The notes under the pieces are model-generated. The model ran no database searches. It was given only the letters and a program-made list of their open reading frames with translations, and had not been told where the DNA came from. 64,000 bases of DNA, taken from an uncultured archaeon. GTDB lineage: Archaea; Hadarchaeota; Hadarchaeia; Hadarchaeales; WYZ-LMO6. A program made the translations under genes and the position numbers. This document shows, one piece after another, positions 3,248 through 54,439 of this stretch. Numbering within the stretch: position 1 is the first letter of the stretch; each line of letters starts with the position of its first letter. The stretch spans positions 23,523 through 87,522 of the forward strand of contig CALJER010000008.1 of NCBI GenBank assembly GCA_938074535.1. The letters are read 5' to 3'.

Positions 3248-3253
3248 GCGGGC

Positions 3254-3412
3254 TCAGAACATCAGGTGGAGGAAAACCACGAGCAGGATGGAGGCCAGGG
3301 AGAAGCCCACCACCGTCCTCGGGGAGACCTTTATCCCCTCACCCTCCTCCGAGAAGTACCTCATCAGACCGGCACCGCTGGGGGGCAGCCTTTCCTCCCT
3401 CCTGCGCATCAT
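3254..3412 (-). CDS. Preprotein translocase Sec61-beta / archaeal SecG (52 aa, C-terminal TM anchor)
   Basis: MMRRREERLPPSGAGLMRYFSEEGEGIKVSPRTVVGFSLASILLVVFLHLMF matches the archaeal Sec61-beta signature (GLxRYF...KxxPxxVV + TM helix). It sits inside a longer spurious ORF (3254..3640). Confidence 0.6.
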   Translation of the reverse strand: MMRRREERLPPSGAGLMRYFSEEGEGIKVSPRTVVGFSLASILLVVFLHLMF

Positions 3413-3430
3413 CCCTCTCCTCTTCCCGCA

Positions 3431-3440
3431 CCTTTTAACC
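3431..3440. promoter_or_regulatory. Possible shared TATA element (CCTTTTAACC) for the divergent leaderless genes Sec61-beta and the PIN/PhoH ATPase
   Basis: Near-palindromic AT core about 20-25 nt from ATG 3412 on the minus strand and from ATG 3464 on the plus strand. Confidence 0.4.
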
Positions 3441-3463
3441 CTTCCGGGAGGAATAGCAGTAAC

Positions 3464-4849: not shown

Positions 4850-5351
4850 ATCCGGCCCCTCCCTGGAGGAACCTCCTCTGGACCTCCAGCACCTCCTCGC
4901 TGTTCCTCGCACGGGCATATCCCTCCAGCCGCTCCAGGTTCAGGTCGAAGAAGGAGGGCCCCCACTTGAAGGGCCTCAGCATCTCCTCCGCCTCCTCCCT
5001 GTGCCCCAGGATGAAGAGGGCCGCCGACAGGGCCTCGGCCGTGCTGAGGGTGGTGGGCCTCCCGTAGTGGGTGGGGTTGGCGGCCACCAGATAGGGAAGG
5101 ATCCTGGGCACCAGCCCCCTCGGGGGGACCTGCTCGCAGAGGTGCTTCCAGGAGCAGTCCAGGGCCGCCAGCCCCCTTCTCTCCGCGATCCCCCTGTCCT
5201 CCGGGGAGAGGGCTTTCCCGGCCCTCGGATCCAGCAGGACCGCACCCCGCGGCAGGTGGCTGAAGCGGAAAACCATCTCCACCTTGCCCAGCCTGCGCAG
5301 GCGCAGGGCGGTGCACCTCCTGGGATCGCACTCCCCCGCACCGTAGACCAC
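4821..5351 (-). CDS. tsr3: Ribosome biogenesis protein Tsr3 (18S/16S rRNA aminocarboxypropyltransferase family)
   Basis: The LRIVVYGAGECDPRRCTALRL...LSTAEALSAALFILG signature matches Tsr3/DUF367. A GTG start at 5351 with a GAGGA spacer lies 6 nt after the radical-SAM stop. Confidence 0.7.
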   Translation of the reverse strand: MVYGAGECDPRRCTALRLRRLGKVEMVFRFSHLPRGAVLLDPRAGKALSPEDRGIAERRGLAALDCSWKHLCEQVPPRGLVPRILPYLVAANPTHYGRPTTLSTAEALSAALFILGHREEAEEMLRPFKWGPSFFDLNLERLEGYARARNSEEVLEVQRRFLQGGAGSTSTSCGST

Positions 5352-5356
5352 TATCC

Positions 5357-6409
5357 TCAGAACCCTCCCCCTCCCGAACCTTTGCCCGCGTTCCCAAAGG
5401 GACACTCGGGGTCGGGGGCGGAGGGCCTCCCCTGCACCTTCAGCACCCTGGACATGCACCCGAAGCACTGGTGGAAGTGGGGGCAGGGGGAGCAGGGGGG
5501 CTCCCTCCCCTCCCTGGACTTGAACCTGCGGATGAGCTCCGAGCCCCTCACTTTCTCCCAGGCCCTCCTCAGGCTCTCCTCCGGGTAGCGGGAAAGGGTG
5601 AGAGAGGGAGGGGAGAACATGCAGGGGAGGATCCCACCGTCCGGGGCCAGGTAGAGGGTGGTCCCGCAGGCACATCCCCTCACCTCCGGAATGGTTATCC
5701 CGCTCCTCCCGCCGGGGAGGGAGACACCCTCCCTCTCGGCGAAGGCCCAGAGGAAGGGGGCATCGTAGTAGACCTCCACCCCCCAGTCCCTGCCGTAGAT
5801 CAGGCGCATGGCCCGGAGGTGGTCCCGGGGGGAAAGACCGTAGGCCCTGTAGTAGGGGTCCTCGCCGCCGTCCCTGGGCTGGAGGGGGATGAAGGTCACG
5901 AACTTCCCCCCCTGCCTCCTGACGAACTCCACCGTTTCCCCCATCTGGTGCAGGTTCTTCCTGGAGAGAACCACCGTGACACCGTGGAAGATTCCCTCCC
6001 TGCTGGCCCTCTCCACGCCCCGCTGGAAGGACTGAAAGCTGGCCCCCTCCTTCGTCTCCTCGTAGACCTCCCTGCTCGCCCCGTCCATGGAGAAAACCAC
6101 CCTCACTCCCCTCCTTCCCAGCTCCCTGGCGAGCTCCTCCCCGAGCAGGGAGCCGTTGGTGATGAGGTAGAGGTCCAGCCCCTCCATCTCCGAGAGGAGG
6201 GGGAGCAGGCCCTCCCTCAGGAGGGGCTCTCCTCCCTCCAGGATTACCCAGTCCGGCCTCAGCTCCACTATTTCCTCCGCCAGAGGAAGAAGGAGCTCTC
6301 TGGGCATCTCCTCCGCCTTCTCCGCCAGGCAGTGCCTGCACCTCAGGTTGCACCTGGAAGTTATGGCCCAGTCAACGAAGCGCGGCCCCATCCTCCCACC
6401 AAAACCCAC
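5357..6409 (-). CDS. Radical SAM protein with C-terminal SPASM/twitch Cys cluster
   Basis: CNLRCRHC (CxxxCxxC) near the N-terminus. C-terminal CACGTTLYLAPDGGILPC and CSPCPHFHQCFGC clusters. Start is GTG 6409 or ATG 6391. Confidence 0.8.
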   Translation of the reverse strand: MGFGGRMGPRFVDWAITSRCNLRCRHCLAEKAEEMPRELLLPLAEEIVELRPDWVILEGGEPLLREGLLPLLSEMEGLDLYLITNGSLLGEELARELGRRGVRVVFSMDGASREVYEETKEGASFQSFQRGVERASREGIFHGVTVVLSRKNLHQMGETVEFVRRQGGKFVTFIPLQPRDGGEDPYYRAYGLSPRDHLRAMRLIYGRDWGVEVYYDAPFLWAFAEREGVSLPGGRSGITIPEVRGCACGTTLYLAPDGGILPCMFSPPSLTLSRYPEESLRRAWEKVRGSELIRRFKSREGREPPCSPCPHFHQCFGCMSRVLKVQGRPSAPDPECPFGNAGKGSGGGGF

Positions 6410-12744: not shown

Positions 12745-13491
12745 TTGGGGGTTCTGCTCGAAGAAGTGGTGACCTTCCCTCCCCCCCTAGAGCCCGTGTG
12801 GGGGGGCTTCCAGAAGCTCTCTTTGCTGGACTACCCCGCAAAGGTGGCCTCGGTGCTCTTCGTGAGGGGGTGCAACTTTCGATGCCCCTTCTGCTACAAC
12901 ACCGAGCTGGTCGGGGGACCGCCCGAAAAGGAGCTCCCCTGGAAGGAGATCCTGGGATACCTGAAGAAGAGGAAGGAGTGGCTGGACGGAGTGGTCATCA
13001 CGGGTGGCGAACCCACCCTCTACTCGGGGCTTCCGGGGTACCTGAGGGAGCTGAAGGGGATGGGGCTGAGCGTGAAGCTCGACACCAACGGCTCCAACCC
13101 GGACATGCTGGGGGAGCTCCTGAGGGAGGGCCTGGTGGACTACGTGGCCATGGACGTGAAGGCGCCGCTGAGGGAGGAGGCGTACGCCAGGGCGGCGGGG
13201 GTGAAGGTCCGCCTGGAGGACGTGAGGAGGAGCCTCTCCCTTCTCCTCTCCTCCGGGGTGGAGTACGAGCTCAGGACCACCGTGGTGCCTACCCTGCTCG
13301 GGGAGAAGGACCTCTTGGAGATAGCGGAGGAGATAAGGGGGGCCAGGAGGTACTACCTGCAGCAGTTCAGGCGCACCTCCACCCACGTGGACGAGCGCTT
13401 CTCCCAGATCCACCCCTACCCCAGGGAGTTCCTGGAGGAGGTCGCGAGGCGGATCTCGGGCTGCTTCGGTAAGTGCGGGGTGAGGGGATGA
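12745..13491 (+). CDS. nrdG: Anaerobic ribonucleoside-triphosphate reductase activating protein (radical SAM)
   Basis: CNFRCPFC cluster and the LLDYPAKVASVLFVRGCN signature. TTG start. Its TGA overlaps the nrdD ATG (ATGA). Confidence 0.8.
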   Translation: MGVLLEEVVTFPPPLEPVWGGFQKLSLLDYPAKVASVLFVRGCNFRCPFCYNTELVGGPPEKELPWKEILGYLKKRKEWLDGVVITGGEPTLYSGLPGYLRELKGMGLSVKLDTNGSNPDMLGELLREGLVDYVAMDVKAPLREEAYARAAGVKVRLEDVRRSLSLLLSSGVEYELRTTVVPTLLGEKDLLEIAEEIRGARRYYLQQFRRTSTHVDERFSQIHPYPREFLEEVARRISGCFGKCGVRG

Positions 13492-15560
13492 TCAAGAAGC
13501 TCAGGAAGAGGGACGGGACGCTGCAGGAGTTCGAGCCGGACAGGATAGGGGAGGCCATAAGGAAGGCGGCGGAGGCGCAGGGGCTCTTGGACTTCGAGGG
13601 GGAGGCGAGGAGGCTGCAGGGGCTGGTGGTGCGCAGGCTGGAGGAGAAGGGGTACGGGGAGGAGAGGCCCCCGGACGTGGAGGGGATACAGGACGAGGTG
13701 GAGGAAGTGCTGAGGGAGGAGGGCTACGGGACGCTGGCGGAGAGGTACCACGAGTACAGGAGGAGGCACGACGAGCTCAGGAGGAGCAGGAGCACGGTGT
13801 TCGACGTGGGGAAGATGGTGGAGGAGTTCATAGGGTACAGGGACTGGAGGGTGAGGGAGAACGCCAACCTCAGGCCTTCTATTTCTTCCATGATGTTCAA
13901 CTCGGCGGGGGCGGTGAACGCCAGGTACCTCCTGGACAAGGTCTACCCGCCGGAGGTCAGCGACGCCCACACGGACGGGGACCTGCACCTCCACGACCTC
14001 TACCAGGGCGTCTGCGGGTACTGCTGCGGGCACTCGATGGAGGACATACTGACGAAGGGGCTGGTGAGCGTGGGGAACAACCCCCACTCCAACCCTCCGA
14101 AGCACCTGGACGTGGCCCTGATGCAGGCGGTGAACTACATAGGGGTGATGACGCAGGAGTGGGCGGGGGCGCAGGCCTTCTCCTGGGTGGACGCCTATTT
14201 GGCGCCCTTCATCAGGGAGGACGGGCTGAGCTACAGGCAGCTCAAGCAGCTCCTCCAGATGTTCGTGTACAACCTGAACGTGACCTCCAGGTGGGGTGGG
14301 CAGAGCCCCTTCTCCAACGTGACGCTGGCCTGCGGGGTGCCGGAGCCCCTGAGGGACAGGCCGGCGGTGGTGGGGGGGAGAACCCTGGACAGGACGTACG
14401 AGGAGTACGAGGAGGAAATAGAGATGTTCGACAAAGCCTTCCTCGAGGTGCTGCTCGAGGGGGACGCAGCGGGCAGGCCCTTCACCTTCCCCATTCCCAC
14501 CTTCGCCATCACCGGGGACTTCCCCTGGGAGGACGGGCTCAGCAGCCTCCTCTTTGGGGTGGCGGCGAAGTACGGGCTGCCCTACTTCCAGAACTTCGTG
14601 AGGAGCGACCTGAGCCCCTGGCAGGTCTATTCCATGTGCTGCAGGCTCTCCCTGGACCTGAGGGAGCTGCAGAGGAACGTGACGGGGGGGCTCTTCGGGT
14701 CCAGCCCGAAGACGGGGAGCGTGGGCGTGGTCACCATCAACCTCTCCAGGGCGGGGTACCTGGCGAAGGGGAGCGAGGAGGAGCTCTTCAGGAGGCTGAG
14801 GTACATGTGCATCCTGGCCGGGAGGGCGCTGGAGCACAAGAGGAGGATCGTGGAGAGGAACATCCAGGCGGGCCTCCTCCCGTACACGAAGGAGTACTTC
14901 GGGGACCTGAGCAGGCACTTCTCCACCATAGGGGTGGTGGGGGGGCACGAGATGTGCCTGAACATGGGGATAGAGGGGGGAATAGCGAGCAGGGAGGGGG
15001 CGGAGCTGTGCAGGAGGGTGCTGGAGTTCCTCAGGGGGGAGTGCAGGAGGCTGCAGGAGGAGACCGGGCACCTCTACAACCTGGAGGCCACGCCGGCGGA
15101 GGGGGTGAGCTACAGGCTGGCAAGGCTGGACAGGAGGAAGTTCGGGGCCTCCATACGCACGAGCGGGGAGAGGGAGCCCTTCTACACCAACTCCACCCAG
15201 CTGCCGGTGGACTCCGACCTGGACCTGGTGGACGCGCTCAGGCACCAGGAGCCCCTCCAGACCCTGTACACGGGGGGAACGGTGTTCCACATCTACCTGG
15301 GAGAGAGCCTGGAGGAGGGGGAGAGCTGCAGGAGCCTCATGAGGAAGGTCACCTCCAGGACCAGGCTGCCCTACTTCACCCTCACGCCCACCTACTCCAT
15401 ATGCGGCGGCCACGGGCTGCTGAGGGGGGAGCAGCCCTCCTGCCCGGTGTGCGGGAGGGAGACGGACGTGTACTCCAGGGTGGTGGGGTACTACCGACCG
15501 GTCAAGAACTGGAACGCAGGGAAGCAGGAGGAGTTCAGGCTGAGGAGGAAATACAGCTGA
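13488..15560 (+). CDS. nrdD: Anaerobic ribonucleoside-triphosphate reductase, class III (glycyl radical enzyme)
   Basis: ATP-cone N-terminus, a C-terminal Zn ribbon (C...C...CPVCG) and the glycyl-radical motif RVVGYYRPV. Confidence 0.9.
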   Translation: MIKKLRKRDGTLQEFEPDRIGEAIRKAAEAQGLLDFEGEARRLQGLVVRRLEEKGYGEERPPDVEGIQDEVEEVLREEGYGTLAERYHEYRRRHDELRRSRSTVFDVGKMVEEFIGYRDWRVRENANLRPSISSMMFNSAGAVNARYLLDKVYPPEVSDAHTDGDLHLHDLYQGVCGYCCGHSMEDILTKGLVSVGNNPHSNPPKHLDVALMQAVNYIGVMTQEWAGAQAFSWVDAYLAPFIREDGLSYRQLKQLLQMFVYNLNVTSRWGGQSPFSNVTLACGVPEPLRDRPAVVGGRTLDRTYEEYEEEIEMFDKAFLEVLLEGDAAGRPFTFPIPTFAITGDFPWEDGLSSLLFGVAAKYGLPYFQNFVRSDLSPWQVYSMCCRLSLDLRELQRNVTGGLFGSSPKTGSVGVVTINLSRAGYLAKGSEEELFRRLRYMCILAGRALEHKRRIVERNIQAGLLPYTKEYFGDLSRHFSTIGVVGGHEMCLNMGIEGGIASREGAELCRRVLEFLRGECRRLQEETGHLYNLEATPAEGVSYRLARLDRRKFGASIRTSGEREPFYTNSTQLPVDSDLDLVDALRHQEPLQTLYTGGTVFHIYLGESLEEGESCRSLMRKVTSRTRLPYFTLTPTYSICGGHGLLRGEQPSCPVCGRETDVYSRVVGYYRPVKNWNAGKQEEFRLRRKYS

Positions 15561-15678: not shown

Positions 15679-16413
15679 TCAGGGGGGTAGATACCCCAGT
15701 CTCCGGAGGAGTTCCCCCACCCCCAGCAGGGCCGGGGCATCCCCGCGCAGCTGGAAGATGGTTCGCCCCTCCCTGTCCAGCTCCTCCACCTCTTTGTCCT
15801 CCGGCACCCTCCCAAGGACTTCCATGCCTACAGGTACCTCCACCTCCTCCCCCCCCTTCATCCTGTTCAGAACCAGCCCCGCCCTCCTGTACTTCACCGC
15901 CCCCCTGTCCGCCACCCCCTTTATGGTGAAAGCCACTCCCAGCGACCTGGGAGAGGGGTCGGAGACCAGCAGTAGGTCATCCACCTCCCTCATCACCCTC
16001 CGGTTGATCTGCTCCACCCCGGCCTCCCCGTCTATCACCACCACCTCGAAGCTCCTGGAGACCGAGGTGAGGATCTCCCTCAGCAGCTCGTTGACCCTGC
16101 AGTAGCATCCCTCCTCCTCGGGCCTCCCCATCGCCAGCAGCGAGAATCCCCTCCTCTCCTCCATCACCCCCAGCACCCCGTAGTCCAGGGAGAGGGCGAG
16201 CTCCTCCCGGCTCACCTTTCCCAGGGAGGAGATCCATTCCCTCCTCAGGTCCTCCACCGTCCTCCTCACCTCCACCCCCAGGGCCTGGGAGAGACCCGAG
16301 GAGGGATCCGCATCCACCGCGAGCACCCTCCTCCGGCCACCCTCCACCAGCAGCCGCAGGGAGGCTGAGGCCAGGAAGGTCTTCCCCACGCCCCCCTTCC
16401 CGCAGAAAACCAT
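15679..16413 (-). CDS. CooC/AcsF-family (MinD/ParA-type) P-loop ATPase with CXC metal-binding motif
   Basis: Deviant Walker A CGKGGVGKT near the N-terminus and EEGCYCRVNEL (C-x-C) as in Ni-insertion ATPase CooC. Last gene of the HgdAB-like operon. ATG at 16413 preferred over GTG 16428. Confidence 0.7.
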   Translation of the reverse strand: MVFCGKGGVGKTFLASASLRLLVEGGRRRVLAVDADPSSGLSQALGVEVRRTVEDLRREWISSLGKVSREELALSLDYGVLGVMEERRGFSLLAMGRPEEEGCYCRVNELLREILTSVSRSFEVVVIDGEAGVEQINRRVMREVDDLLLVSDPSPRSLGVAFTIKGVADRGAVKYRRAGLVLNRMKGGEEVEVPVGMEVLGRVPEDKEVEELDREGRTIFQLRGDAPALLGVGELLRRLGYLPP

Positions 16414-16424
16414 CACCCCTTCCC

Positions 16425-17135
16425 TCACTTCTTCCCCTCCCTCAGCATCCTATCCCTTATCGCCCTGAGCTCCGCCACGCTCCCGCACACCTCCCTGTAG
16501 TCGCATCTGTCGCAGTCCAGCGAAACCTCCTCCACCATCTTGCCCACGGCCCCCGCTATCTTCCTGGCCTTCTCCCCAAACCCCCAGAGGGCCCTCACGC
16601 CCTCCTCGCAGGTGGAGAAGACCACCTCCGCGGAAGACAAGGGGAAGCCGGAGCGCAGGGCCCTCAGGAGGGCCCCCCCCACCACGGAGAGGGAGAGGCC
16701 CCTCTCCACCGCCTCCCTGCTCACCCTGCTCCAGGCCTTCAGCTGGGAGGGCAGGCCCCTGACCATGTACCCCCTGAGCCCGATCCTGAGCGGAGCCAGG
16801 TTCAGCCTCCGGTACTCCTCATCCCTGACCTCCCTCGATTCCACCAGACAGAGCTGGGCGAAGGGGACCACGCCCCTCAGCCGCGGCAGGTCCTCCCCCC
16901 ACAGGCTCACCCTCCCCTCCTCCACCAGCCCGGGAGTCTCGGTGAGGAGAACCGAGGAGAAGGAGGGGAGCTCCGGCGGACCGAGCTCCACCCACGTATC
17001 CTCCTTCAGAACCACGCCGGATTCCCCCAGGAAGCCGTCCGGGTCGAGGGGCGTGAGCCTCCTCACCCTCCCCCCGCTTTCTCCCCTTTTCAGAAGCTCC
17101 CGCAGGGACCTCAGGTCCTCATCGAAGAGCTTCAT
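16425..17135 (-). CDS. Hypothetical protein with C-terminal CDRCDYREVC motif
   Basis: No family recognised. Placed between activator ATPase 1 and the CooC-like gene with 4-nt overlaps on both sides. Confidence 0.45.
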   Translation of the reverse strand: MKLFDEDLRSLRELLKRGESGGRVRRLTPLDPDGFLGESGVVLKEDTWVELGPPELPSFSSVLLTETPGLVEEGRVSLWGEDLPRLRGVVPFAQLCLVESREVRDEEYRRLNLAPLRIGLRGYMVRGLPSQLKAWSRVSREAVERGLSLSVVGGALLRALRSGFPLSSAEVVFSTCEEGVRALWGFGEKARKIAGAVGKMVEEVSLDCDRCDYREVCGSVAELRAIRDRMLREGKK

Positions 17136-17904
17136 CCGCCCTCTCCCGCGCGAGCAGGCAGGCCCCGTAGGCCCCCGCCAGGATGGGGTCCAGCGGGAGC
17201 CTCCTCACCTTCCTCCCCAGTTGCTCCTCCAGGGCCCTCACGAAGCTCTCCAGCCTGCTCACCCCTCCGGCCACCACCACCTCCCCCCTCATCCCCACCT
17301 TCCTCACGATGGAGGAGACCCTCCCCGCGATGGCCCTGGTGACGGCGGCCACGACGTCCTGCACCTCCTCCCCCTCGTTCAGGAGGGCCACCACCTCGCT
17401 CTCGGCGAAAACCGTGCACTGGGAGGTGATGGAGAGTTTCTTGGTGGAGCGAGACACCGCCTCGTCCCACTCCTCCAGCCCTATGCCCAGGGCTTCCCCC
17501 AGAAGCTCCAGGAACCTCCCCGCCCCGGCCGCGCACCTGTCGTTCGTCCCGTAGTCCACCACCCTTCCCCCCTCCATCACCGCCACCCTGGTGGTGTTGG
17601 CCCCCACCTCCACCACCGTTCCGGCCTCGGGAACCAGGGAGCTGCACGCCCTGGAAAGGCAGAGAAGGACGGGTCTCTCCTCCCTGACGAAGTCCAGACC
17701 CCTCACCCTCTCCCCCGTCCCCACGCAGTAGGCCACCTCCTCCCACCTCCTCCCGGCACCCTCCAGCGCGAGGGCGAAGGCACGCTCCGCCGTCTCCCTG
17801 GCCCTCGGCCCGGTCTCCAGGACGGCGTGGCCCAGAAGGGAACCATCTTCCATGAGGAGGGCCTTCACCCTCCCGCTCCCCACGTCCAGTCCTCCCACCA
17901 GCAT
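17119..17904 (-). CDS. CoA-substrate-specific enzyme activase (HgdC/BcrA/BcrD/BadF/BadG ATPase family), copy 1
   Basis: ASKHA fold; DRCAAGAGRFLE and CTVFAESEV cluster-ligand cysteines. Its start overlaps the stop of copy 2 (TGATG). Confidence 0.8.
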   Translation of the reverse strand: MLVGGLDVGSGRVKALLMEDGSLLGHAVLETGPRARETAERAFALALEGAGRRWEEVAYCVGTGERVRGLDFVREERPVLLCLSRACSSLVPEAGTVVEVGANTTRVAVMEGGRVVDYGTNDRCAAGAGRFLELLGEALGIGLEEWDEAVSRSTKKLSITSQCTVFAESEVVALLNEGEEVQDVVAAVTRAIAGRVSSIVRKVGMRGEVVVAGGVSRLESFVRALEEQLGRKVRRLPLDPILAGAYGACLLARERADEALR

Positions 17905-18686
17905 CAGCTTCCCCCCACCTTCTGCCTGGCGAAGAGGGCCGCCCCGAGGGCCCCCACCAGCTGCGGGTCGAAGTCCAGCCTGAGGAGGGGGACCCCCAGC
18001 ATCTCCTCCAGGTACCTCACCACCCCCACGTTCTTCGCCACCCCTCCGGAGAGGACCACCTCCCTCTCCACCCCCATCCTCGAGGCCAGCGCCTTCACCC
18101 TCGCCGCCATGGCCTGATTCACACCCGCCGCCACATCCTCGGCGCTGGCACCCTCAGCCAGCTGGGAGAGGACCTCCGACTGGGCGTAGACCGCACACAC
18201 GTTGGTGATGGGTATGGGCCTCCTGGAGGAAAGGGAGAGCCTTCCCAGCTCCTCCACTCCCACTCCCAGCGTCTTGGCCATCAGCTCCAGGAACCTCCCC
18301 GTTCCCGCCGCGCACTTGTCGTTCATGACGAAGTTCAGCAGCCTTCCCTCCCCGTCCACCCTTATCACCTTGCAGTCCTGCCCCCCTATGTCTATCACCG
18401 TCCTCACGGAGGGAAGGAGCCAGTGGGCACCCTTTCCGTGGCAGGAGATCTCCGACACGTTCTCCCCCGCGAAAGGAATCCTCACCCTGCCGTAGCCCGT
18501 CCCCACGCAGTAGGCCACCTCCTCCCACCTCCTCCCCGCCTTCCTCAGCGCCTCCTCCATCACCTCCCTGGCCGAGAGCTCCGGTCTGGGTTTGACCCTC
18601 CTCACCTCGTGGGAGAGGATGCGCCCGTCCTCCAGCAGGACGGCCTTGGCGGTGAGGGAGCCCACGTCGCAGCCTGCCACCAGCAT
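17904..18686 (-). CDS. CoA-substrate-specific enzyme activase (HgdC/BcrA/BcrD family), copy 2
   Basis: MNDKCAAGTGRFLE and CAVYAQSEV motifs. Tandem paralog of copy 1; by eye the two differ by more than 50%. Confidence 0.8.
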   Translation of the reverse strand: MLVAGCDVGSLTAKAVLLEDGRILSHEVRRVKPRPELSAREVMEEALRKAGRRWEEVAYCVGTGYGRVRIPFAGENVSEISCHGKGAHWLLPSVRTVIDIGGQDCKVIRVDGEGRLLNFVMNDKCAAGTGRFLELMAKTLGVGVEELGRLSLSSRRPIPITNVCAVYAQSEVLSQLAEGASAEDVAAGVNQAMAARVKALASRMGVEREVVLSGGVAKNVGVVRYLEEMLGVPLLRLDFDPQLVGALGAALFARQKVGGS

Positions 18687-18687
18687 G

Positions 18688-20055
18688 CTAGCCCAGTCCC
18701 ATCGTTTCGTTGAACTCCAAAATCCTGCGCTTGATCTCCGAAACGGGGCTGACCCTGAAGTCCCAGGAGTCAGCCTCCAGCCTGAGGCAGGGCAGGCCCG
18801 TCTCCCTCTGGAGCGCCCTTATGAAGGCCTGGAAGCCCCCCCAAGTGTTCTTGCAGGCAGGATGGCCGGCGAACACGAAGCAGTCCCCTCCCCACTGCTC
18901 CACGCACCACACGTAGTCCTCCAGCCACTGGTCGGGCAGATCCACAGGCCCCCTCTGCTGCCTGGTCATGGGGTAGCTCCAGCACCTCTGCGCCAGCCCC
19001 TCCAGCATGGTGTCCAGGGAGGAGGTGTCGATGGGTTTCTCCGCGTGGAAGAGGGTGAGGACGTCCACCACGTAGCTCATCCCGTTCTCCTCCAGCCAGA
19101 ACCAGAGGTCCATGCTGGGGGGGTAGAAGCCCGTGTACACCCAGATCTGCCTGATGCGCTCCTCCGGCTTCGCTCCTTCCCCCTTCCTGAGCCTGTCCTT
19201 GGAGGCCTCCAGCACGGCCTCGAAGACCCTGGTCCCCTGCGGGGTCCCCACCGAGCTGAACTTCACGCCCTGGAGGAAGATGTTGAAGGAGGAGTGGACG
19301 GGGTTGGGGCGGGCCCTCTTCAGGTCATTTATCTCCAGGTAATACTTCCTGCACTTCTCGCTCTCCTCCACCACCTCCCTCAGCCTCTCCTCCTCCAGTT
19401 TCTTCCCGGCGAACTCCTCCAGCCTCCTCACCTGGTGCCTGTACTCCTTCGTGTAGTAGTCGAAGGCCCTCTCCCCGTGGTAGGTGGGACAGTCTATCCC
19501 CAAATAGGGAACACCCAGGCGGACCGCCATGTACTCGTAGAGCTTGGAGTTGGCGTCGCAGCTTCCTGGGGCGGCGGTAACCACCAGATCCGGGCGCAGG
19601 CCCAAGCCCTTCAGGATGGCCCCGCAGGCTGCCCTCTGGGAGGTGCACATGGTCTCGAGCAGTCCCTCCTCCACGCTCCAGTCGAAGTAGACGTGGGGAT
19701 CCTCGAGGAAAATGGTGGCGAAGGAGGTGAGGACCTCCGGCACCAGCGGGACGAGGTCCAAAGCGTAAAAGACCTCCGGGGCGGTGTTGAAGCTGGAGAG
19801 CACCACCTTCTTTCCCTCCTCCCTCGCCCCCCTCAGCATCCCGAGATACCAGGCCGCCCACCTAGAGACCTCCAGGGCCACCCTCCGGATGGCGGGGTCG
19901 GAGAGGAAGAGATGCCTCAGGACCTCGGCCTGGGAGGGAACGGCCGCCACCAGGTCCTCCATTTCCCTCTCCGTAACGTCCTCGGGGATGGAGGAAGCCG
20001 TGGAAAGAAGGATGAAGAGCCTCTCCTCGAGCGGCAGCTGCCTAGCCTCTTCCAC
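18688..20055 (-). CDS. 2-hydroxyacyl-CoA dehydratase / benzoyl-CoA reductase BcrBC-like (HgdAB/DCCP family) subunit B
   Basis: HgdB/BcrC-family length and conserved Cys pattern (CTSQRAACG..., GSCDANS). GTG start at 20055. Confidence 0.75.
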   Translation of the reverse strand: MEEARQLPLEERLFILLSTASSIPEDVTEREMEDLVAAVPSQAEVLRHLFLSDPAIRRVALEVSRWAAWYLGMLRGAREEGKKVVLSSFNTAPEVFYALDLVPLVPEVLTSFATIFLEDPHVYFDWSVEEGLLETMCTSQRAACGAILKGLGLRPDLVVTAAPGSCDANSKLYEYMAVRLGVPYLGIDCPTYHGERAFDYYTKEYRHQVRRLEEFAGKKLEEERLREVVEESEKCRKYYLEINDLKRARPNPVHSSFNIFLQGVKFSSVGTPQGTRVFEAVLEASKDRLRKGEGAKPEERIRQIWVYTGFYPPSMDLWFWLEENGMSYVVDVLTLFHAEKPIDTSSLDTMLEGLAQRCWSYPMTRQQRGPVDLPDQWLEDYVWCVEQWGGDCFVFAGHPACKNTWGGFQAFIRALQRETGLPCLRLEADSWDFRVSPVSEIKRRILEFNETMGLG

Positions 20056-20377
20056 CAGCCTCCCTCCTCTCGGCCAGCCTCCTCAGCTCCCTCTCCTCCA
20101 GCCTCGGGCGGAGGTAAATCGCGTACCCACCCTGGGTCTTCTCCACCATGAGCTTCCATCCGCCCTTCTCCCCCTCCTCCCTCTCCGACTGTCCTCTCAC
20201 CACCCTGTCCAGCATCTCCTCCATCCCCTCCAACAGCTCCCTGGGAAGTCTGGACCTGAAGTCGGGGCAGATCCTGGTGCTGGCGGGGTTCTCCTCGCTC
20301 CCCTTCAGCTGACACCTTATCCTCTCCCACTCCATCCACGCGGCCCAGAAGCAGTCACCGCACCTAACGGGGCTCAT
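20042..20377 (-). CDS. Small Cys-containing protein (C-x2-C-x14-C-x13-C) between the two HgdAB-like subunits
   Basis: MSPVRCGDCFWAAWMEWERIRC...RIC motif. Its ATG overlaps the upstream stop (ATGA at 20374-20377); its stop lies 14 nt inside the next gene. Confidence 0.45.
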   Translation of the reverse strand: MSPVRCGDCFWAAWMEWERIRCQLKGSEENPASTRICPDFRSRLPRELLEGMEEMLDRVVRGQSEREEGEKGGWKLMVEKTQGGYAIYLRPRLEERELRRLAERREAGGRG

Positions 20378-21507
20378 CTCCCCAGCCTCTCCAGGAAGGC
20401 CTGGATTCTGGTCCTGATCCTCCCCACCTCCGCCAGCGGGCCGTACTGCCTCTCCAGGAGCAGAGTGGGCACCCCCTCCTCCTCCAGCCTCCTGGCGAAG
20501 AGGGTGTTGTCTCCTCCATGCGTGTCGCAGAACTTCATGTGCTCCAGGACCACTCCTTCCACCCTCCATTCTTTGATGAGCCTCCTCAAAAAGTTGAGCT
20601 TCCTCTCGAACTCCCCATAGGTCCTGGCGCAGGGTACGTGGTAGTAGTACCTCCTCACCAGGGCCTCAAAGGGGTCCCCCCCCTCTTCCACCATGTCCAC
20701 GATGGACCTCATGCCGAAGCAGAGGGAGTCCGTGACCACCAGGCCCCCCTGCCCCTCTATCACCCTCACCAGCTCCGGATCGTCGTTCACGCTCCCCACG
20801 AGCATCAGCCTGGTTCCGGAGTACTCCTTTCCCCTCTCCTCCACTTCCTCCAGCGCTTCCTCCAGCAGGCGGTTGTAGACCTCCCTTCTCACAGCCGTGC
20901 TCGCCACGTGGAGGGCCAGGGCCTCCTGCCCGGAAACAGGGGGTCTCTCCCTCTTTCTCCTTTCGTTGAGCTCCAGGAGGAGCCTCCTCCCCCTGTTGTA
21001 CTCCCTGATGGCCTCCTCCAGCTTTTCGGGAGAGAGCTCCGTCCCGAAGTGCCCCTCCATGGCCTTCAAAAGGGAGAAGATCTCGCCCCGGTAGAACTCC
21101 AGCCCGTGCTCCGTGAGGGTGTGGGGGATCCCAAAGTAGTAGAAGAAGGGGGGGAGGTTCCCCGCCGCCTTCCAGCAGTCGTACATCCTCCTCACATGAT
21201 CGCAGGTGCGGGAGATCACGGCCCCATCCAGGAAGTCGTACCTTCCCTCCAGCACCAGCTGCAGGCAGCAGCGCGTGTAGCTGCAGTTGACGGGACCGTA
21301 CCAGGCGTCCGCCAGGGAGGTTCCTGAGCAACCCGTCCCCCTGATCCTGAAGGGAAGCATGCCCAGGGCGTGGACGAGCTCTTCCGGGAAGTAGCTGCAG
21401 GTGTAGCCCACGACCCTCCCTCCTCCCCTCTTCCACTCTTCCAGCAGGGGATTGGAGATCCCCGAGGAGACCCGCTCCAGGGCTTCTAGACTTCCCACTT
21501 CAAACAT
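20374..21507 (-). CDS. 2-hydroxyacyl-CoA dehydratase / BcrBC-like (HgdAB family) subunit A
   Basis: GYTCSYFPEEL...GTGCSG...CSYTRCC motifs of the HgdA/BcrB family. ATG 21507 (MFEVGSLEAL) preferred; ATG 21522 also possible. The upstream ORF extension was rejected. Confidence 0.75.
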   Translation of the reverse strand: MFEVGSLEALERVSSGISNPLLEEWKRGGGRVVGYTCSYFPEELVHALGMLPFRIRGTGCSGTSLADAWYGPVNCSYTRCCLQLVLEGRYDFLDGAVISRTCDHVRRMYDCWKAAGNLPPFFYYFGIPHTLTEHGLEFYRGEIFSLLKAMEGHFGTELSPEKLEEAIREYNRGRRLLLELNERRKRERPPVSGQEALALHVASTAVRREVYNRLLEEALEEVEERGKEYSGTRLMLVGSVNDDPELVRVIEGQGGLVVTDSLCFGMRSIVDMVEEGGDPFEALVRRYYYHVPCARTYGEFERKLNFLRRLIKEWRVEGVVLEHMKFCDTHGGDNTLFARRLEEEGVPTLLLERQYGPLAEVGRIRTRIQAFLERLGR

Positions 21508-21556
21508 GGTTCTTGCGGGCATAAATCTTTTTTTTTGAAGGGGCCAAGAAAAACCG
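21508..21556. promoter_or_regulatory. Divergent promoter region (CATAAATCTTTTTTTTT) between the HgdA-like operon and the saccharopine-DH-like operon
   Basis: AT-rich stretch 20-30 nt from both start codons. Confidence 0.4.
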
Positions 21557-22753
21557 ATGGGAGATAAGAAGGTGGTGGTCCTGGGAGGGGGCGGGGTGGT
21601 GGGAAGAACCGCCGTGAAGGACCTGGCCAAGAGCGGGGTCTTCTCGGAGGTGGTGGTGGCCGACAAGGAGGTGGAGAAGGCGAGGGAGCACCTGGAGGGA
21701 GTTCCCCGCCTCTCCTTCGTGAAGGCAGACCTCACGGAGTTGTCCATCCTCAGGGAGGTGATAAAGGGGGCGGACGTGGTTCTGAACACCGTAGGACCCT
21801 TTTACAAGTTCGGCCCCTTGCTCACGAGGGAGGCCATACGGACCGGGGTGAACTACGTGGACATCTGCGACGACTACGAGGCCACGCTGGAGCAGCTGAA
21901 GATGGACGAGGAGGCGAGGAAGAGGGGTGTGACCGTCCTCACGGGCATGGGCTCTTCACCCGGCGTGGCCAACGTGGTGGCCAAGTTCTGCTCCCAGTTG
22001 CTGGACCAGCCGGAGGAGATCCACATCTACCACATCCACGGGGGGGAGCCGGAAGAGGGGCCCGGGGTGATCTACCACCGCATCCACTACATGACGGGAA
22101 AAATCCCCATGCTGAAGGATGGGAAGATGGTGTACTTCGGGTTCTTCAGTGAGGAAGGGAGAAGGGAAATAGAGGAAGTGGACTTCTACGAGCCCATAGG
22201 GGTGGCGAAGGTTTACCCCTACCCGCACCCGGAGACCATCACCCTCCCCAGGTACATCCCGGGCCTCAGGAAGGTCACCAACAAAGGGTCCGTCCTACCC
22301 CTGGAATACTACGAACTGCTGCGGGAGGCCGTGAAGATGGGTTTAGCCGATGAGAAGCCCCTGAAGGTGGGAGGGGCCTCCGTGGCCCCCATCGACTTCC
22401 TGGTCTCCTTCGTCCTCTCCAAGAGGAAGGAATATGCGAGCAGGCTGCCTGAACCCGTGGGTTGCCTGAAGATCGTGGTGAGGGGGAGAAAGGGGGGAAA
22501 GAGGATGGAGTACAGGTTCGCCATCCCCTCCAGGGGTGCGGGTATGGGGGAGGGAACGGCCATTCCCGCCTCGGTGGGCACGCAGATGGTGGCCAGAGGG
22601 GAGATCGAGGAGAAAGGGGTCCTCCCCCCGGAGGCCTGCGTGGATCCCATGAAATTCTTCGAGGAGGCGAGGAGCAGGGAGGGGATGGGCGGCGTCAGGA
22701 TCATCTTCGAGAGCGTGGACGAGGAGGGGAGGGTGACCAGCATACCCCTTTGA
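21557..22753 (+). CDS. Saccharopine dehydrogenase-like NAD(P)-binding oxidoreductase
   Basis: VVVLGGGGVVGRTAVKDL Rossmann motif and Sacchrp_dh-like layout. Confidence 0.7.
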   Translation: MGDKKVVVLGGGGVVGRTAVKDLAKSGVFSEVVVADKEVEKAREHLEGVPRLSFVKADLTELSILREVIKGADVVLNTVGPFYKFGPLLTREAIRTGVNYVDICDDYEATLEQLKMDEEARKRGVTVLTGMGSSPGVANVVAKFCSQLLDQPEEIHIYHIHGGEPEEGPGVIYHRIHYMTGKIPMLKDGKMVYFGFFSEEGRREIEEVDFYEPIGVAKVYPYPHPETITLPRYIPGLRKVTNKGSVLPLEYYELLREAVKMGLADEKPLKVGGASVAPIDFLVSFVLSKRKEYASRLPEPVGCLKIVVRGRKGGKRMEYRFAIPSRGAGMGEGTAIPASVGTQMVARGEIEEKGVLPPEACVDPMKFFEEARSREGMGGVRIIFESVDEEGRVTSIPL

Positions 22754-22790
22754 CCCAAGCCTTTTTTTCCTCCAGAAAACCACTCTTTTG

Positions 22791-24089
22791 ATGTTCAAGT
22801 GGAGGGAAAAGGAGTACGAGGAGCTTGAGGCTCAGCCCGAGGCCCTCCCCGAGGGGGTGGATCCCGAGGAATACGTCATCGCCACCTACTTCCTCTCCCT
22901 CCCCTCCGCCCTGGATCCCTGGGAGGTGGCTAGGGCCCTGGCCATAGAGCAGAGCACGGGAACCTGGGTGCCCGTTCCCGGGGAGACCCCCGAGGTGAGG
23001 AAGAAGCACGTGGCCAAAGTGGTGGGACTGTACGAGGCCCCCTATCCGGAAGTCCTCTCCCCCACGGAGGCCAGGGAGAGGAACTATGTGGTGCAAATCG
23101 CCTTCCCGCAGGTGAATTTCGGGAAACAGATCCCCATGCTCCTCTCCACGGTGGCGGGGAACCTGATGTGCTGGGAGAAGATCAAGCTCCTGGACCTCCG
23201 CTTCCCCAAGAGCTTCGTGGAGGGCTTCGGGGGCCCCAAGTTCGGGATAGAGGGGATAAGGAAGCTGCTGGGAGTGGAGGAGAGGCCCCTGATCAACAAC
23301 ATGATCAAGCCCTGCACCGGCTTTACACCCGACGTGGGTGCGAGGCTGGCCTACGAAGCGGCGGTAGGGGGAGTGGACATGATCAAGGACGACGAGCTAC
23401 TGGGCAACCCCTCCTTTAACCCCATAGAGGAGAGGGTGCCGAAGTACATGGAGGCTCTGGACAGGGCGAACAGGGAAAAGGGGGAAAAGACCCTCTACAC
23501 GGTCAACATCACGGACGAGGCCTCCAGGGTGATGGAGAACGCGGACAGGGCCATAGAGCTTGGGGCGAACGCCCTCATGATCAACTATCTCACCGCCGGA
23601 ATCTCCCTGCTCAGGGAGCTGGCGGAGGATCCAAGCATCAACGTCCCCATCCTGGCCCACATGGACTTCTCCGGCACCATGTACGTCTCCCCCTACTCAG
23701 GCCTCTCCTCCTCGCTCCTGCTGGGGAAGCTGCCCAGGCTGGCGGGTGCCGACATCTTGGTCTACCCAGCACCCTACGGGAAGGCCCCCTTCATGAAGGA
23801 GAGATACGTGAGGATAGCCCACCACCTGACCTTTCCCCTCTACCACCTCCGCCCCACCTTCCCCATGCCCAGCGGGGGGATCACGCCCTCCATGGTGCCC
23901 GAGGTGGTGGGGGATCTGGGGAAGGACATCGTGATAGGGACGGGGGGAGGGATCCACGCCCACCCCATGGGTCCCAGGGCCGGAGCCAGGGCCTTCAGGC
24001 TGGCGGTGGAGGCGGTGATGAGGGGGATGAGCCTGCAGGAGATGGCCAAGGAGCACGAGGAGCTGAGGGTGGCCCTGCAGATGGGCTGA
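22791..24089 (+). CDS. RuBisCO-like protein (RLP, form IV-like); probably not a carboxylase
   Basis: RuBisCO large-subunit fold motifs are present: IKP (K175), GGVDMIKDDE (K201/D203/E204). K177 is replaced by Cys (MIKPCTG) and the HIHR region reads LAHMD (R295 lost), judged by eye. ATG at 22791. Confidence 0.8.
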   Translation: MFKWREKEYEELEAQPEALPEGVDPEEYVIATYFLSLPSALDPWEVARALAIEQSTGTWVPVPGETPEVRKKHVAKVVGLYEAPYPEVLSPTEARERNYVVQIAFPQVNFGKQIPMLLSTVAGNLMCWEKIKLLDLRFPKSFVEGFGGPKFGIEGIRKLLGVEERPLINNMIKPCTGFTPDVGARLAYEAAVGGVDMIKDDELLGNPSFNPIEERVPKYMEALDRANREKGEKTLYTVNITDEASRVMENADRAIELGANALMINYLTAGISLLRELAEDPSINVPILAHMDFSGTMYVSPYSGLSSSLLLGKLPRLAGADILVYPAPYGKAPFMKERYVRIAHHLTFPLYHLRPTFPMPSGGITPSMVPEVVGDLGKDIVIGTGGGIHAHPMGPRAGARAFRLAVEAVMRGMSLQEMAKEHEELRVALQMG

Positions 24090-24098
24090 GGGGGTTCC

Positions 24099-25598
24099 TT
24101 GGGGTACATCCTGGCCCACGACCTGGGGACGGAGCTCAACAAGGCCGCCCTGGTGGACGAGGAAGGGAGGATAGTCGCCTACTGTACCCAGGAGTACCCC
24201 GTCTCCTATCCCAGGCCGGGGTGGGCGGAGCAGGATCCGGAGCTCTGGTGGGAGGCCGTCAGGGAAACCACGAAAAAGGTGCTGGAGCTGGCGGGGATCA
24301 AACCGGGAGAGGTGGAGGCGCTGGTCTTCGACAGCATGATGTACACGCTGGTGGCGGTGGACCGGGGAGGAAGACCGCTCAGGCCGGCCATCCTCTGGCT
24401 CGACACCAGGGCGAAGGCCCAGGCGGAGGAGCTGATGGGAAGCCTGGACCTGCTGGGGATGCTGGAGAGGGGGGTGATCCCGCCCACCTCGGCCAAGGAC
24501 ATCACCCCGAAGATCCTGTGGGTGAAGCAGGAGGAGCCGCACGTTTTCGAGAAGGCCTGCTTCATCGACAGCAAGGACTACCTGGTCCACCGGTGCGTGG
24601 GGGAGTTCTACACCGACTGGAGCTGCGCCAGCCTCTTCTGCCTCTTCAACTTCAGGGAGAAGAGGTGGGAGGAGGAGCTGGTGGAGGAAATGGGCCTTTC
24701 CCTGGAAAGGCTCTCCAGGCCCGTGAAGAGCACGGAGGTGGTGGGGAACCTCACGGAGGAAGCCTCCAGGGAGCTTGGACTGCCCAGGAAGGTGGAGGTG
24801 GTGTGCGGGTCCGGGGACGCCACCGCGGTGGCGGTGGGAGCGGGGGGACCCCACCTGTACGTGGGGACCTCGGCCTGGATAGGTGCCCACGTGGAGGAGC
24901 CCCTCTTCGACCTGACCGGCGTGGGCAGCATCTGCTCCGCCGATCCCTCCAGGTTCTTCCTGATAGGGGAGATGGAGAACGCCGGGGCCTGCCTGAAGTG
25001 GTTCAGGGAGACCCTGGCCAGGGAGGAGAAGGAAAGGGCGGAGAAGGAGGGAAAAGGCCCCTACCAGCTGCTGGACGAGCTGGCCTCCGGTGCGGAGGCC
25101 GGGTCGGGGAAGCTCCTCTTCCTCCCCTGGATGATGGGGGAGAGGTGCCCCTTCACCCAGTCCACCGCCAGGGGGGCCTTCCTGAACCTCACCTTCGGGC
25201 ACACCAAAGGGCACCTGGTGAGGGCGGTGCTGGAAGGGGTGGCCTACCACATGAGGTGGATCCTGGAGGTGGTGGAAGGGATGGGGCTCTCCCTCCCCTC
25301 CATCAGGGCCTGCGGCGGAGGGGCTAAGAGCGGGGTCTGGCTCCAGATCTTCGCCGACGTGATGGGGAGGAAGGTGGAGAGGGTCTCCTCCCCGCACCAC
25401 GTGGGCTCGCTGGGAGCCGCCACCCTTGCCAGGGTAGGTCTGGGAAAGACGGACTTTTCCTCGGCGGAGAGGTCCGTGAAGGTGGAGGGGGAGTTCCTCC
25501 CCTCGGAGGAAAACCGGGACATCTACGACAGGATGTACGAGGAGTTCAGGGGGATGCAGGGGAGGCTGTCGGAGGTCTTCGAGCGCCTCAACACCTAG
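24099..25598 (+). CDS. FGGY-family carbohydrate kinase (xylulokinase/ribulokinase-like)
   Basis: YILAHDLGTE N-terminus, GWAEQDPELWW and GTSAWIG motifs. TTG start 9 nt after the RLP stop. Confidence 0.8.
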   Translation: MGYILAHDLGTELNKAALVDEEGRIVAYCTQEYPVSYPRPGWAEQDPELWWEAVRETTKKVLELAGIKPGEVEALVFDSMMYTLVAVDRGGRPLRPAILWLDTRAKAQAEELMGSLDLLGMLERGVIPPTSAKDITPKILWVKQEEPHVFEKACFIDSKDYLVHRCVGEFYTDWSCASLFCLFNFREKRWEEELVEEMGLSLERLSRPVKSTEVVGNLTEEASRELGLPRKVEVVCGSGDATAVAVGAGGPHLYVGTSAWIGAHVEEPLFDLTGVGSICSADPSRFFLIGEMENAGACLKWFRETLAREEKERAEKEGKGPYQLLDELASGAEAGSGKLLFLPWMMGERCPFTQSTARGAFLNLTFGHTKGHLVRAVLEGVAYHMRWILEVVEGMGLSLPSIRACGGGAKSGVWLQIFADVMGRKVERVSSPHHVGSLGAATLARVGLGKTDFSSAERSVKVEGEFLPSEENRDIYDRMYEEFRGMQGRLSEVFERLNT

Positions 25599-52852: not shown

Positions 52853-52906
52853 TCTCCCTCCCTTTTCTTGGAAGGTTTTTAACTTTGGGGAGGAGAAAAG
52901 GGGAGA
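52853..52906. promoter_or_regulatory. Divergent purB / purH promoter region (GTTTTTAAC about 25 nt upstream of the purH ATG)
   Basis: AT-rich box in an otherwise GC-rich spacer. Confidence 0.4.

Positions 52907-54439
<1,533 letters not shown>

Follow-up and report, generated by a model that had tools for sequence, protein, structure and literature searches.

A RuBisCO-like protein encoded beside an FGGY kinase and a saccharopine-dehydrogenase-like or aminotransferase-family protein in Archaea and Bacteria

To our knowledge, only a handful of reactions are known for RuBisCO-like proteins (RLPs), and all RuBisCO-superfamily substrates that we know of carry a phosphate ester on a CH2 group beside a carbonyl. 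Here we describe an RLP encoded in a 64,000-nucleotide stretch of contig CALJER010000008.1 from an uncultured Hadarchaeales archaeon (hereafter the window, meaning the whole stretch analysed), where its gene lies between one for a protein of the saccharopine dehydrogenase family (the SDH-like protein) and one for an FGGY carbohydrate kinase. We tentatively propose that the three genes are one functional module for an undescribed small-molecule pathway with an amine/carbonyl step, in which the RLP acts on a mono-phosphorylated ketone. Both the signature of this RLP and its set of partners are new, and its reaction probably is too; searches that reached little of the subscription literature returned no description of a cluster of RLP, FGGY and SDH-like genes.

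Among characterised enzymes, the nearest relative of this RLP is MtnW (YkrW; PDB 2zvi and 2oek), the 2,3-diketo-5-methylthiopentyl-1-phosphate enolase of classical methionine salvage, a pathway that needs O2 at its MtnD step. The general base of the G. kaustophilus MtnW is reportedly Lys98, a finding attributed to Imker and colleagues in 2007. Form III RuBisCOs are partnered by AMP phosphorylase and ribose 1,5-bisphosphate isomerase. The R. rubrum RLP (3qfw), a 5-methylthioribulose-1-phosphate 1,3-isomerase of the methylthioadenosine-isoprenoid shunt, moves the carbonyl of a mono-phosphorylated pentulose with a non-polar tail, and its partners are a cupin methylsulfurylase, MtnA and MtnP. Apionate catabolism, the setting of the RLPs OiaX and OiaC, starts with an oxidoisomerase that acts on a hydroxyl and is neither a saccharopine-dehydrogenase-family nor a pyridoxal phosphate (PLP) enzyme, and its kinase belongs to the DUF1537 family, not to FGGY. 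As far as it is cited in PMC6389311 and PMC6302742, the D-apionate pathway (Carter et al. 2018) comprises an oxidoreductase, a kinase and an RLP.

An earlier note on this DNA, made from the sequence alone, had described three co-directional genes at 21557-25598 with gaps of 37 and 9 nt, and the open reading frame (ORF) list and spacer sequences confirm this arrangement:

21557-22753, plus strand: SDH-like gene, 398 aa from an ATG (ORF list and Pfam)
22754-22790, plus strand: spacer between the SDH-like and RLP genes, 37 nt, with a T7 tract, cctttttttcc (sequence)
22791-24089, plus strand: RLP gene, 432 aa from the ATG at 22791 (ORF list and Pfam)
24090-24098, plus strand: spacer between the RLP and FGGY genes, 9 nt (sequence)
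24099-25598, plus strand: FGGY kinase gene, 499 aa from a TTG (ORF list and Pfam)

The ORF tool started the RLP at a TTG at 22788 (433 aa); the ATG at 22791 gives 432 aa, which is the length of a 100% identical database protein (P0001) and fits this start. The TTG of the kinase is preceded, at a distance of 5 nt, by a GGGGG run. Third-position GC of the three genes is 0.86–0.92, as in other real genes of the window, which has a GC content of ~63% and archaeal character, with genes for archease, Thi4, aEF-1alpha, anaerobic ribonucleotide reductase and DUF1464 around the locus, and the RLP shares 95% identity with its counterpart in a Candidatus Hadarchaeales metagenome-assembled genome (MAG). 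The three genes and their domains are genuine and a chance origin is impossible. They probably form an operon; the T7-tract spacer might hold an internal terminator or promoter of archaeal type, or be a mere spacer.

Active site of the RLP and its nearest relatives

The RLP has the superfamily architecture of an N-terminal alpha+beta domain (RuBisCO_large_N, PF02788, 4.6e-12) and a C-terminal TIM-barrel (RuBisCO_large, PF00016, 1.3e-50), and its AlphaFold2 model (pLDDT 91.6) matches solved RLP and RuBisCO large subunits in Foldseek at TM-scores (TM) of 0.83–0.89. A PDB sequence search ranked MtnW of B. subtilis and G. kaustophilus first (38–39% identity, E about 1e-86, TM 0.86–0.88), followed by the C. 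tepidum RLP and the P. horikoshii form III RuBisCO, and the Foldseek ranking agrees with this order. Form III RuBisCOs (P. horikoshii 2cwx, T. kodakarensis 3a12) have the same fold (TM about 0.85), whereas the R. rubrum RLP is far from ours (E 5.6e-37, a weaker match than form I, II and III RuBisCOs). No curated NCBIfam threshold is passed: the scores are 378.8 bits (cut-off 409) and 337.4 (513.6) for the MtnW models NF007095 and TIGR03332, 279.7 (497.45) for form III RuBisCO (TIGR03326) and 194 (700) for OiaX (NF042437).

The following motifs carry the active-site signature, given in spinach RuBisCO numbering:

22947-22967, plus strand: EQSTGTW, with E60, T65 and W66
23157-23162, plus strand: GN, with N123
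23295-23315, plus strand: NNMIKPC, with the K175-like Lys and Cys at 177
23367-23396, plus strand: GGVDMIKDDE, with K201, D203 and E204
23655-23666, plus strand: AHMD, with H294 kept, Met at 295 and Asp at 296
23745-23789, plus strand: GADILVYPAPYGKAP, with Val at 327 and K334
23868-23882, plus strand: PSGGI, with S379, G380 and G381
23937-23966, plus strand: GTGGGIHAHP, with G403 and G404

We compared this signature across 84 clade members from 83 loci and two MtnW sequences, numbered via standard motifs whose spinach equivalences we presume from general knowledge; MtnW numbering was cross-checked against the PDB-search alignment. The RLP keeps 16 of the 19 canonical RuBisCO catalytic or binding positions checked, and the clade retains E60, T65, W66, N123, K175, K201, D203, E204, H294, K334, S379, G380, G381, G403 and G404. 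The carbamylatable Lys and metal ligands (K201, D203, E204) are present in 84/84 members, and the metal/carbamate centre as a whole, K175, H294 and the residues of the first phosphate site (P1) in 83–84 of 84, with Ala in place of G404 in eight. Position 177 is Cys in 82/84, position 295 is Met in 79/84 and Leu in the rest, positions 296 and 327 are Asp and Val in every member, and positions 325 and 328 are hydrophobic. The motifs that the earlier note had quoted (an IKP Lys with Cys at 177, and GGVDMIKDDE) are thus in the sequence as described.

With form III RuBisCO, the RLP has in common the E-x-S-T-G-T-W motif, N123, K175, K201/D203/E204, H294, K334, S379 and G403/G404, an almost full catalytic set, but it has lost K177 and the two residues that bind the second phosphate (P2), R295 and H327. 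A genuine form III enzyme carboxylating ribulose 1,5-bisphosphate would account for the fold, for the 16 canonical positions (K175, K201, D203, E204, H294, K334 and S379 among them) and for the name ‘ribulose 1,5-bisphosphate carboxylase’ that relatives bear in some sources. We give this explanation next to no credence: Cys177, Met295 and Val327 are invariant or nearly so, the P2 site is gone, the score lies far under the form III cut-off, and no AMP phosphorylase or ribose 1,5-bisphosphate isomerase partner occurs in the loci examined. The alignment therefore leaves intact the identification of the middle gene as an RLP and not a CO2-fixing RuBisCO, K177, R295 and H327 all being replaced.

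The comparison with MtnW bears on the current database annotation, which would make the RLP the diketo enolase of classical methionine salvage. MtnW and the clade have K175, K201, D203, E204, H294, S379, the P1 glycines and the loop-6 framework P-x-P-Y-G in common, and neither has a basic P2 phosphate site; the two MtnW models are the best NCBIfam matches, MtnW structures top the PDB search, and JGI labels many members as 2,3-diketo-5-methylthiopentyl-1-phosphate enolase. However, both scores fall under the curated cut-offs, and Lys98, present in both MtnW reference sequences, is Asn in 84/84 clade members, as N123 is in RuBisCO. MtnW has Gly60, Val/Met177, Pro295, Ala296, Leu327, Ser334 and Ala380 where the clade systematically has Glu60, Cys177, Met295, Asp296, Val327, Lys334 and Gly380. 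Other salvage genes are missing from the neighbourhood (among the 25 most frequent Pfam families of 148 sampled neighbour proteins), and the hosts are anaerobes, whereas the classical pathway requires O2 at MtnD. An MtnW function is thus highly improbable, and the evidence indicates that the methionine-salvage annotation of the clade is wrong. Public annotations routinely name members MtnW or ‘ribulose bisphosphate carboxylase’, and such names have, for example, led a metagenome study to infer methionine salvage (PMC7495880).

Judged by its residues, the RLP has what is best seen as a RuBisCO active site minus the second phosphate site: it is no ribulose 1,5-bisphosphate carboxylase, because the P2 site is gone, and no MtnW, because the catalytic Lys98 of MtnW is Asn in the clade. 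The earlier note had also labelled it an enolase/isomerase-type enzyme. That part is not established, since the clade, unlike MtnW, retains K334, E60 and N123, so that cleavage or (de)carboxylation is conceivable too. From these three residues together with K175, H294 and the carbamate-Mg2+ centre, one may argue that the RLP goes beyond tautomerisation and adds or removes CO2, or hydrolytically cleaves the enediolate of a mono-phosphorylated keto compound, a reading that we regard as improbable.

Partner genes across phyla

GTDB species representatives were scanned with a 12-sequence clade alignment, RuBisCO-family loci were kept via a clade-derived peptide plus a generic active-site motif, and the best 80 of at least 537 kept loci were examined. 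These 80 encode proteins with 59–95% identity to the RLP; their hosts are bacterial (Anaerolineae, Dehalococcoidia, Caldisericota and a Tissierellales MAG) and archaeal (Hadarchaeales, Bathyarchaeia, Archaeoglobi, Theionarchaea, Baldrarchaeota, Jordarchaeia, Thorarchaeota and other Asgard archaea). The trio is kept in several orders in Chloroflexota, Caldisericota, Hadarchaeota, Bathyarchaeia, Archaeoglobi and Asgard archaea. We observed FGGY-RLP-SDH, SDH-RLP-FGGY, SDH-FGGY-RLP and RLP-SDH-FGGY, with adjacency kept throughout, and in Dehalococcoidia the genes flanking the module are unrelated between loci. The grouping seen in the window is therefore no peculiarity of one contig, the three orthologues being co-localised across phyla and both domains.

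Partners were counted by tblastn and de novo clustering of flanking ORFs in the 8 kb around the RLP at 83 loci. An FGGY orthologue (33–46% identity) was found at 53 loci, an SDH-like orthologue (44–51% identity) at 30 and a class-III aminotransferase at 24. When the count was restricted to the 43 loci flanked by 4 kb or more on each side, 17 had FGGY with the SDH-like gene and 15 had FGGY with the aminotransferase, so that FGGY stood with exactly one of the two in 32/43; no locus had all three partners and six had none. An independent search from the SDH-like protein in JGI metagenomes found 516 contigs, and both RLP and FGGY were present at 29 of the 30 well-flanked SDH-like loci, the lone locus without partners (L116) being explained by a DDE transposase inserted beside the gene.

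The replacing aminotransferases, which we had considered as a single orthogroup, fall into two unrelated cross-phylum orthogroups and a third, lineage-specific one. AT3-a (50–79% identity) occurs in Anaerolineae, Baldrarchaeota and Thorarchaeota, and AT3-b (64–78% identity), which is glutamate-1-semialdehyde-aminomutase-like, in Cryosericum, Tissierellales, Anaerolineae and Dehalococcoidia. In a neighbour-joining tree of the RLPs, partner type switches between sister lineages several times, as between Caldiserica (L048) and Cryosericum (L041), within Thorarchaeota and at a Dehalococcoidia locus (L082).

A Pfam tally of the 148 sampled neighbours revealed no further common partner among the 25 most frequent families, and these families include no DUF1537 kinase. 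FolD, FTHFS and formiminotransferase genes (beside Thorarchaeota RLPs) and OYE and PNPOx-like genes were rejected as core partners, being lineage-specific. These results bear out the view of the earlier note that the partners are unlike those of characterised RLP pathways: MtnW and the R. rubrum RLP have different ones, and form III RuBisCO lies with AMP phosphorylase and ribose 1,5-bisphosphate isomerase where our RLP has a kinase and a putative amine enzyme.

Several loci carry additional genes. In Theionarchaea and some Anaerolineales, the genes after the RLP encode a small HMG-CoA_red_N-like protein and a DUF401 membrane protein. Candidatus Methanolliviera (L087, 6250-14449) has the SDH-like gene, the RLP, a DAO+Fer2_BFD/Pyr_redox_2/DUF1667 trio, an M28 peptidase and then the FGGY kinase; its trio resembles anaerobic glycerol-3-phosphate dehydrogenase or opine/proline dehydrogenase complexes and possibly adds a redox step. 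One Dehalococcoidia contig (L081) carries two copies of the RLP-SDH pair (2857-5414 and 12880-10323), inverted and with identical tblastn scores, either as a large inverted duplication or as an assembly artefact. In Anaerolineae (L005 at 5369-6025, L010, L015 and L022), unrelated genes lie between FGGY and RLP, which by direct reading of the sequences encode a REP/IS200-type transposase-like protein, ‘AEAQARTE’ repeat proteins with long coiled coils, a GNAT-like protein and a zinc alcohol dehydrogenase. We rejected them as conserved partners and treated them as insertions, which the module thus tolerates.

Partner chemistry and a proposed pathway

The SDH-like protein contains Sacchrp_dh_NADP (6.6e-18) and Sacchrp_dh_C (5.4e-10) domains and the following motifs:

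21578-21604, plus strand: Rossmann motif VLGGGGVVG (sequence)
22025-22087, plus strand: clade-invariant His/Arg cluster IYHIHGGEPEEGPGVIYHRIH (alignment)
22220-22237, plus strand: YPHPET, with H224 and E226 (alignment with carboxyspermidine dehydrogenase)

Its relationship to characterised enzymes is distant, the best PDB sequence matches being 4ina (1e-16), 8deb (1e-12) and 3abi (1e-7). The best 30 Foldseek neighbours of its AlphaFold2 model (pLDDT 92.6) are all C-N oxidoreductases (TM 0.57–0.79), in the order carboxyspermidine dehydrogenases (CASDH), L-lysine 6-dehydrogenase, saccharopine reductases, BioU and homospermidine synthase. With TM 0.75–0.79 to CASDH and 0.71 to 3ABI, it has the three-domain fold of saccharopine dehydrogenase, CASDH and lysine 6-dehydrogenase. 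The catalytic triad of BfCASDH is H228/E229/E230 (PMC10413350); H228 and E230 align with invariant H224 and E226, while the first Glu is replaced by Pro in the invariant H224-P225-E226, so that the His-Glu-Glu triad is incomplete. The protein scores 31.2 against a cut-off of 800 for the CASDH model NF043000, and no carboxyspermidine decarboxylase lies near its gene. Residues 157-177 hold invariant H159, H161, E164, E167, H174, R175 and H177, a segment unmatched in the CASDH homologue 4ina in one pairwise alignment, which could be a metal- or phosphate-binding site.

Lysine 6-dehydrogenase and BioU belong to the same fold family at 15–21% identity, and the module has no link to lysine, polyamine or biotin genes. 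Both enzymes offer a documented parallel to the exchange beside the RLP, an NAD(P) enzyme of this family and a class-III PLP enzyme catalysing one and the same amine/carbonyl step. Lysine 6-aminotransferase is the class-III counterpart of L-lysine 6-dehydrogenase. The latter (3ABI) is an SDH-family NAD(P) enzyme (PMC10413350), and BioU stands in for the class-III aminotransferase BioA (PMC13532358); both alternations mirror that of the SDH-like and aminotransferase genes. Because the close structural relatives of the SDH-like protein are all C-N enzymes, because aminotransferases replace it and because these precedents exist, the third enzyme's step is most likely an amine/carbonyl interconversion and not a polyol oxidation.

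The kinase has both FGGY domains (FGGY_N 1.3e-50, FGGY_C 1.7e-33), a D-x-G-T motif and a putative catalytic Asp, which place it in the FGGY family:

24114-24134, plus strand: DLGT, the N-terminal D-x-G-T phosphate motif (sequence)
24804-24833, plus strand: GSGDA, with the putative catalytic Asp (sequence)

Its best PDB match is E. coli XylB (2itm, 5.7e-60), although xylulokinase equivalog cut-offs are not reached (TIGR01312, 326.8 bits against 380.25; PRK15027, 217.8 against 912), and it scores 101 and 39 bits against fuculokinase and rhamnulokinase. By these matches it appears to be a xylulokinase/gluconokinase-like FGGY carbohydrate kinase.

The simplest sequence that uses the typical chemistry of each family suggests the following order of steps. 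The FGGY kinase would phosphorylate a terminal CH2OH. The SDH-like enzyme, acting as an NAD(P)-dependent C-N oxidoreductase of the amine-dehydrogenase/imine type on the model of L-lysine 6-dehydrogenase, CASDH and BioU, would then interconvert an amine-bearing carbon and a carbonyl, a job that a class-III PLP aminotransferase-family enzyme would take in other lineages. The resulting mono-phosphorylated alpha-hydroxy-ketone would bind to the RLP with its phosphate in the P1 cradle (T65, W66, G381, G403/404) and its non-phosphorylated tail in the remodelled P2 pocket (Met295, Asp296, Val327 and hydrophobic 328), where the Mg2+/carbamyl-Lys201 centre, with K175 and H294, would enolise it. The outcome could be carbonyl migration, for which the R. 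rubrum RLP provides a plausible reaction type, or C-C cleavage or decarboxylation to central metabolites as in OiaC, OiaX and RuBisCO. The substrate most likely carries amino and hydroxyl groups, as an amino-polyol, amino-sugar or amino-sugar-acid type; its amine nature is moderately supported, and the step order, the substrate itself and the type of reaction at the RLP are likewise inferred.

The earlier note had instead envisaged an unrecognised polyol or keto-sugar route, of which the undescribed route stands and the polyol oxidation by the first gene is probably wrong. Here the SDH-like protein would be an alcohol dehydrogenase for a polyol, keto-sugar or acid-sugar, FGGY would phosphorylate the product, and the RLP would enolise, isomerise or decarboxylate it. 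The logic is that of the D-apionate pathway with non-homologous partners; that pathway, like our proposed one, combines a carbonyl-creating enzyme, a kinase and an RLP whose substrate is a mono-phosphorylated keto compound, although its kinase is DUF1537 and ours FGGY. The conserved trio and its XylB/GntK-like kinase agree with such a route, as do the major facilitator superfamily transporters adjoining the module at some loci (6/148 sampled neighbours, and Helarchaeota L088), and sugar dehydrogenases do occur in the wider Rossmann plus GAPDH-like-domain superfamily, though they match the model at TM about 0.4 only. Yet every close structural relative of the SDH-like protein works on C-N bonds, the catalytic His of CASDH is retained, and the genes that replace it, in two orthogroups, belong to a PLP aminotransferase family incapable of alcohol oxidation, which makes this explanation fairly unlikely.

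Salvage of a 5-substituted ribose derived from S-adenosylmethionine (SAM), such as 5-methylthioribose or 5-deoxyribose, was also considered. The FGGY kinase would produce a ribulose-1-phosphate substituted at position 5, in the way that fuculokinase and rhamnulokinase act on 6-deoxy-ketoses, the RLP would isomerise it (like the R. rubrum enzyme) or cleave it, and the aminotransferase or SDH-like enzyme would aminate the oxo product, for example to methionine or S-methylcysteine. MtnW is after all the closest characterised relative, the P2 pocket is hydrophobic in both (Met/Val/Phe-type in the RLP, Pro/Leu/Phe in MtnW), and the canonical pathway ends in a transamination. In Dehalococcoidia the module is a compact operon whose flanks are unrelated, and the upstream genes inspected include no neighbouring transporter or regulator, which would suit an endogenous substrate. 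In anaerobic R. rubrum, RuBisCO has been tied to S-methyl-mercaptopyruvate and S-methylcysteine (PMC6302742), which favours such salvage as well. The kinase, in contrast, is a weak match to fuculokinase (101 bits) and rhamnulokinase (39 bits) beside the 327 bits for XylB, MtnW's Lys98 is replaced throughout, and nucleosidase/phosphorylase families and those of MtnA (IF-2B), MtnB (Aldolase_II), MtnD (ARD) and MtnK (APH) are not found among the 148 sampled neighbours or elsewhere in the window; IF-2B, Aldolase_II, ARD and APH are absent from the 25 most frequent neighbour families and from the window genes scanned. We consider this salvage quite unlikely.

Several points weigh against the amine/carbonyl module that we prefer. 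Exclusivity between the SDH-like gene and aminotransferases is not absolute, for a Bathyarchaeia lineage (L008, L146, L153) has the SDH-like gene and the third, divergent class-III aminotransferase beside the RLP. The comparison covered gene neighbourhoods, and since these alone were compared, a ‘missing’ partner could lie elsewhere in the genome. At about one quarter of RLP loci, neither a kinase nor an amine enzyme lies nearby; loci without partners belong to Jordarchaeia, Theionarchaea and some Promethearchaeota, and in five loci of Jordarchaeia/Thermoproteota (L004, L017, L020, L023, L030) 3-hydroxyacyl-CoA dehydrogenase and enoyl-CoA hydratase genes follow the RLP, whose active-site signature is unchanged despite the absence of these partners. 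Enzymes of the class-III fold can also be racemases, aminomutases or lyases, and XylB/GntK-like kinases phosphorylate the CH2OH distal to the carbonyl, so that on this point a plain keto-sugar route fits equally well. All members encountered come from MAGs, metagenomes or enrichments; a search from an Archaeoglobus MAG sequence for a member in cultured A. fulgidus returned no named cultured member among its best hits.

Surroundings of the module and significance

The module is separated by a short region from a divergent operon on its upstream side:

21508-21556, no strand assigned: divergent intergenic region, 49 nt between divergent start codons, with the A/T-rich core CATAAATCTTTTTTTTTGAA (sequence)

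The upstream start is the ATG of a minus-strand HGD-D-like gene at 21507-21505 (read on that strand), placed from the ORF and a 374-aa homologue in locus L001. The region is a candidate for a shared archaeal promoter that works in both directions and yields near-leaderless transcripts.

The six-gene operon that starts there (15679-21507, minus strand) encodes two HGD-D proteins (2-hydroxyacyl-CoA dehydratase/benzoyl-CoA reductase B/C-like), two BcrAD/BadFG ATPases, a 236-aa protein with a weak CdhC match and a CbiA/ParA-like ATPase, and by these families it looks like a class-I benzoyl-CoA-reductase-like or dehydratase-plus-activator system. We rejected it as a functional partner of the RLP module, as it is syntenic in close Hadarchaeales relatives only. 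At 12745-15560, anaerobic ribonucleotide reductase NrdD (with an ATP-cone) adjoins a radical-SAM activase-like gene, a pair consistent with a strictly anaerobic host. A minus-strand adenylosuccinate-lyase-like ORF of 741 aa (51404-53629), within a purine-biosynthesis block of PurF-like, PurC, PurQ, PurL and FolD genes, has its Lyase_1 domain from residue 295; either it has a long N-terminal extension or its start is called too far upstream. Between 56000 and 64000, GC drops from ~0.63 to ~0.54 and third-position GC from ~0.87 to ~0.65 across genes that include two thiolase-C-like proteins and an AMP-binding acyl-CoA-synthetase-like protein, which may reflect horizontal acquisition or an assembly or binning junction.

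RLPs are the sole view of the roles of the RuBisCO scaffold before or besides CO2 fixation. The clade is large and spans both domains, and its hosts, which include Anaerolineae, Dehalococcoidia, Thorarchaeota, Bathyarchaeia and Hadarchaeales, are dominant organisms of anoxic sediments and hot springs. A compact module with interchangeable, putatively amine-handling partners is a well-defined target for the discovery of function in vitro, and the retained K334, E60 and N123 bear on how carboxylation chemistry arose. Should the RLP indeed add or remove CO2 or cleave its substrate, it would represent, in biochemical terms, a living link between RLPs and carboxylating RuBisCO, widespread in Asgard archaea, Hadarchaeota, Bathyarchaeia and Chloroflexota within a previously unknown amine-linked pathway.

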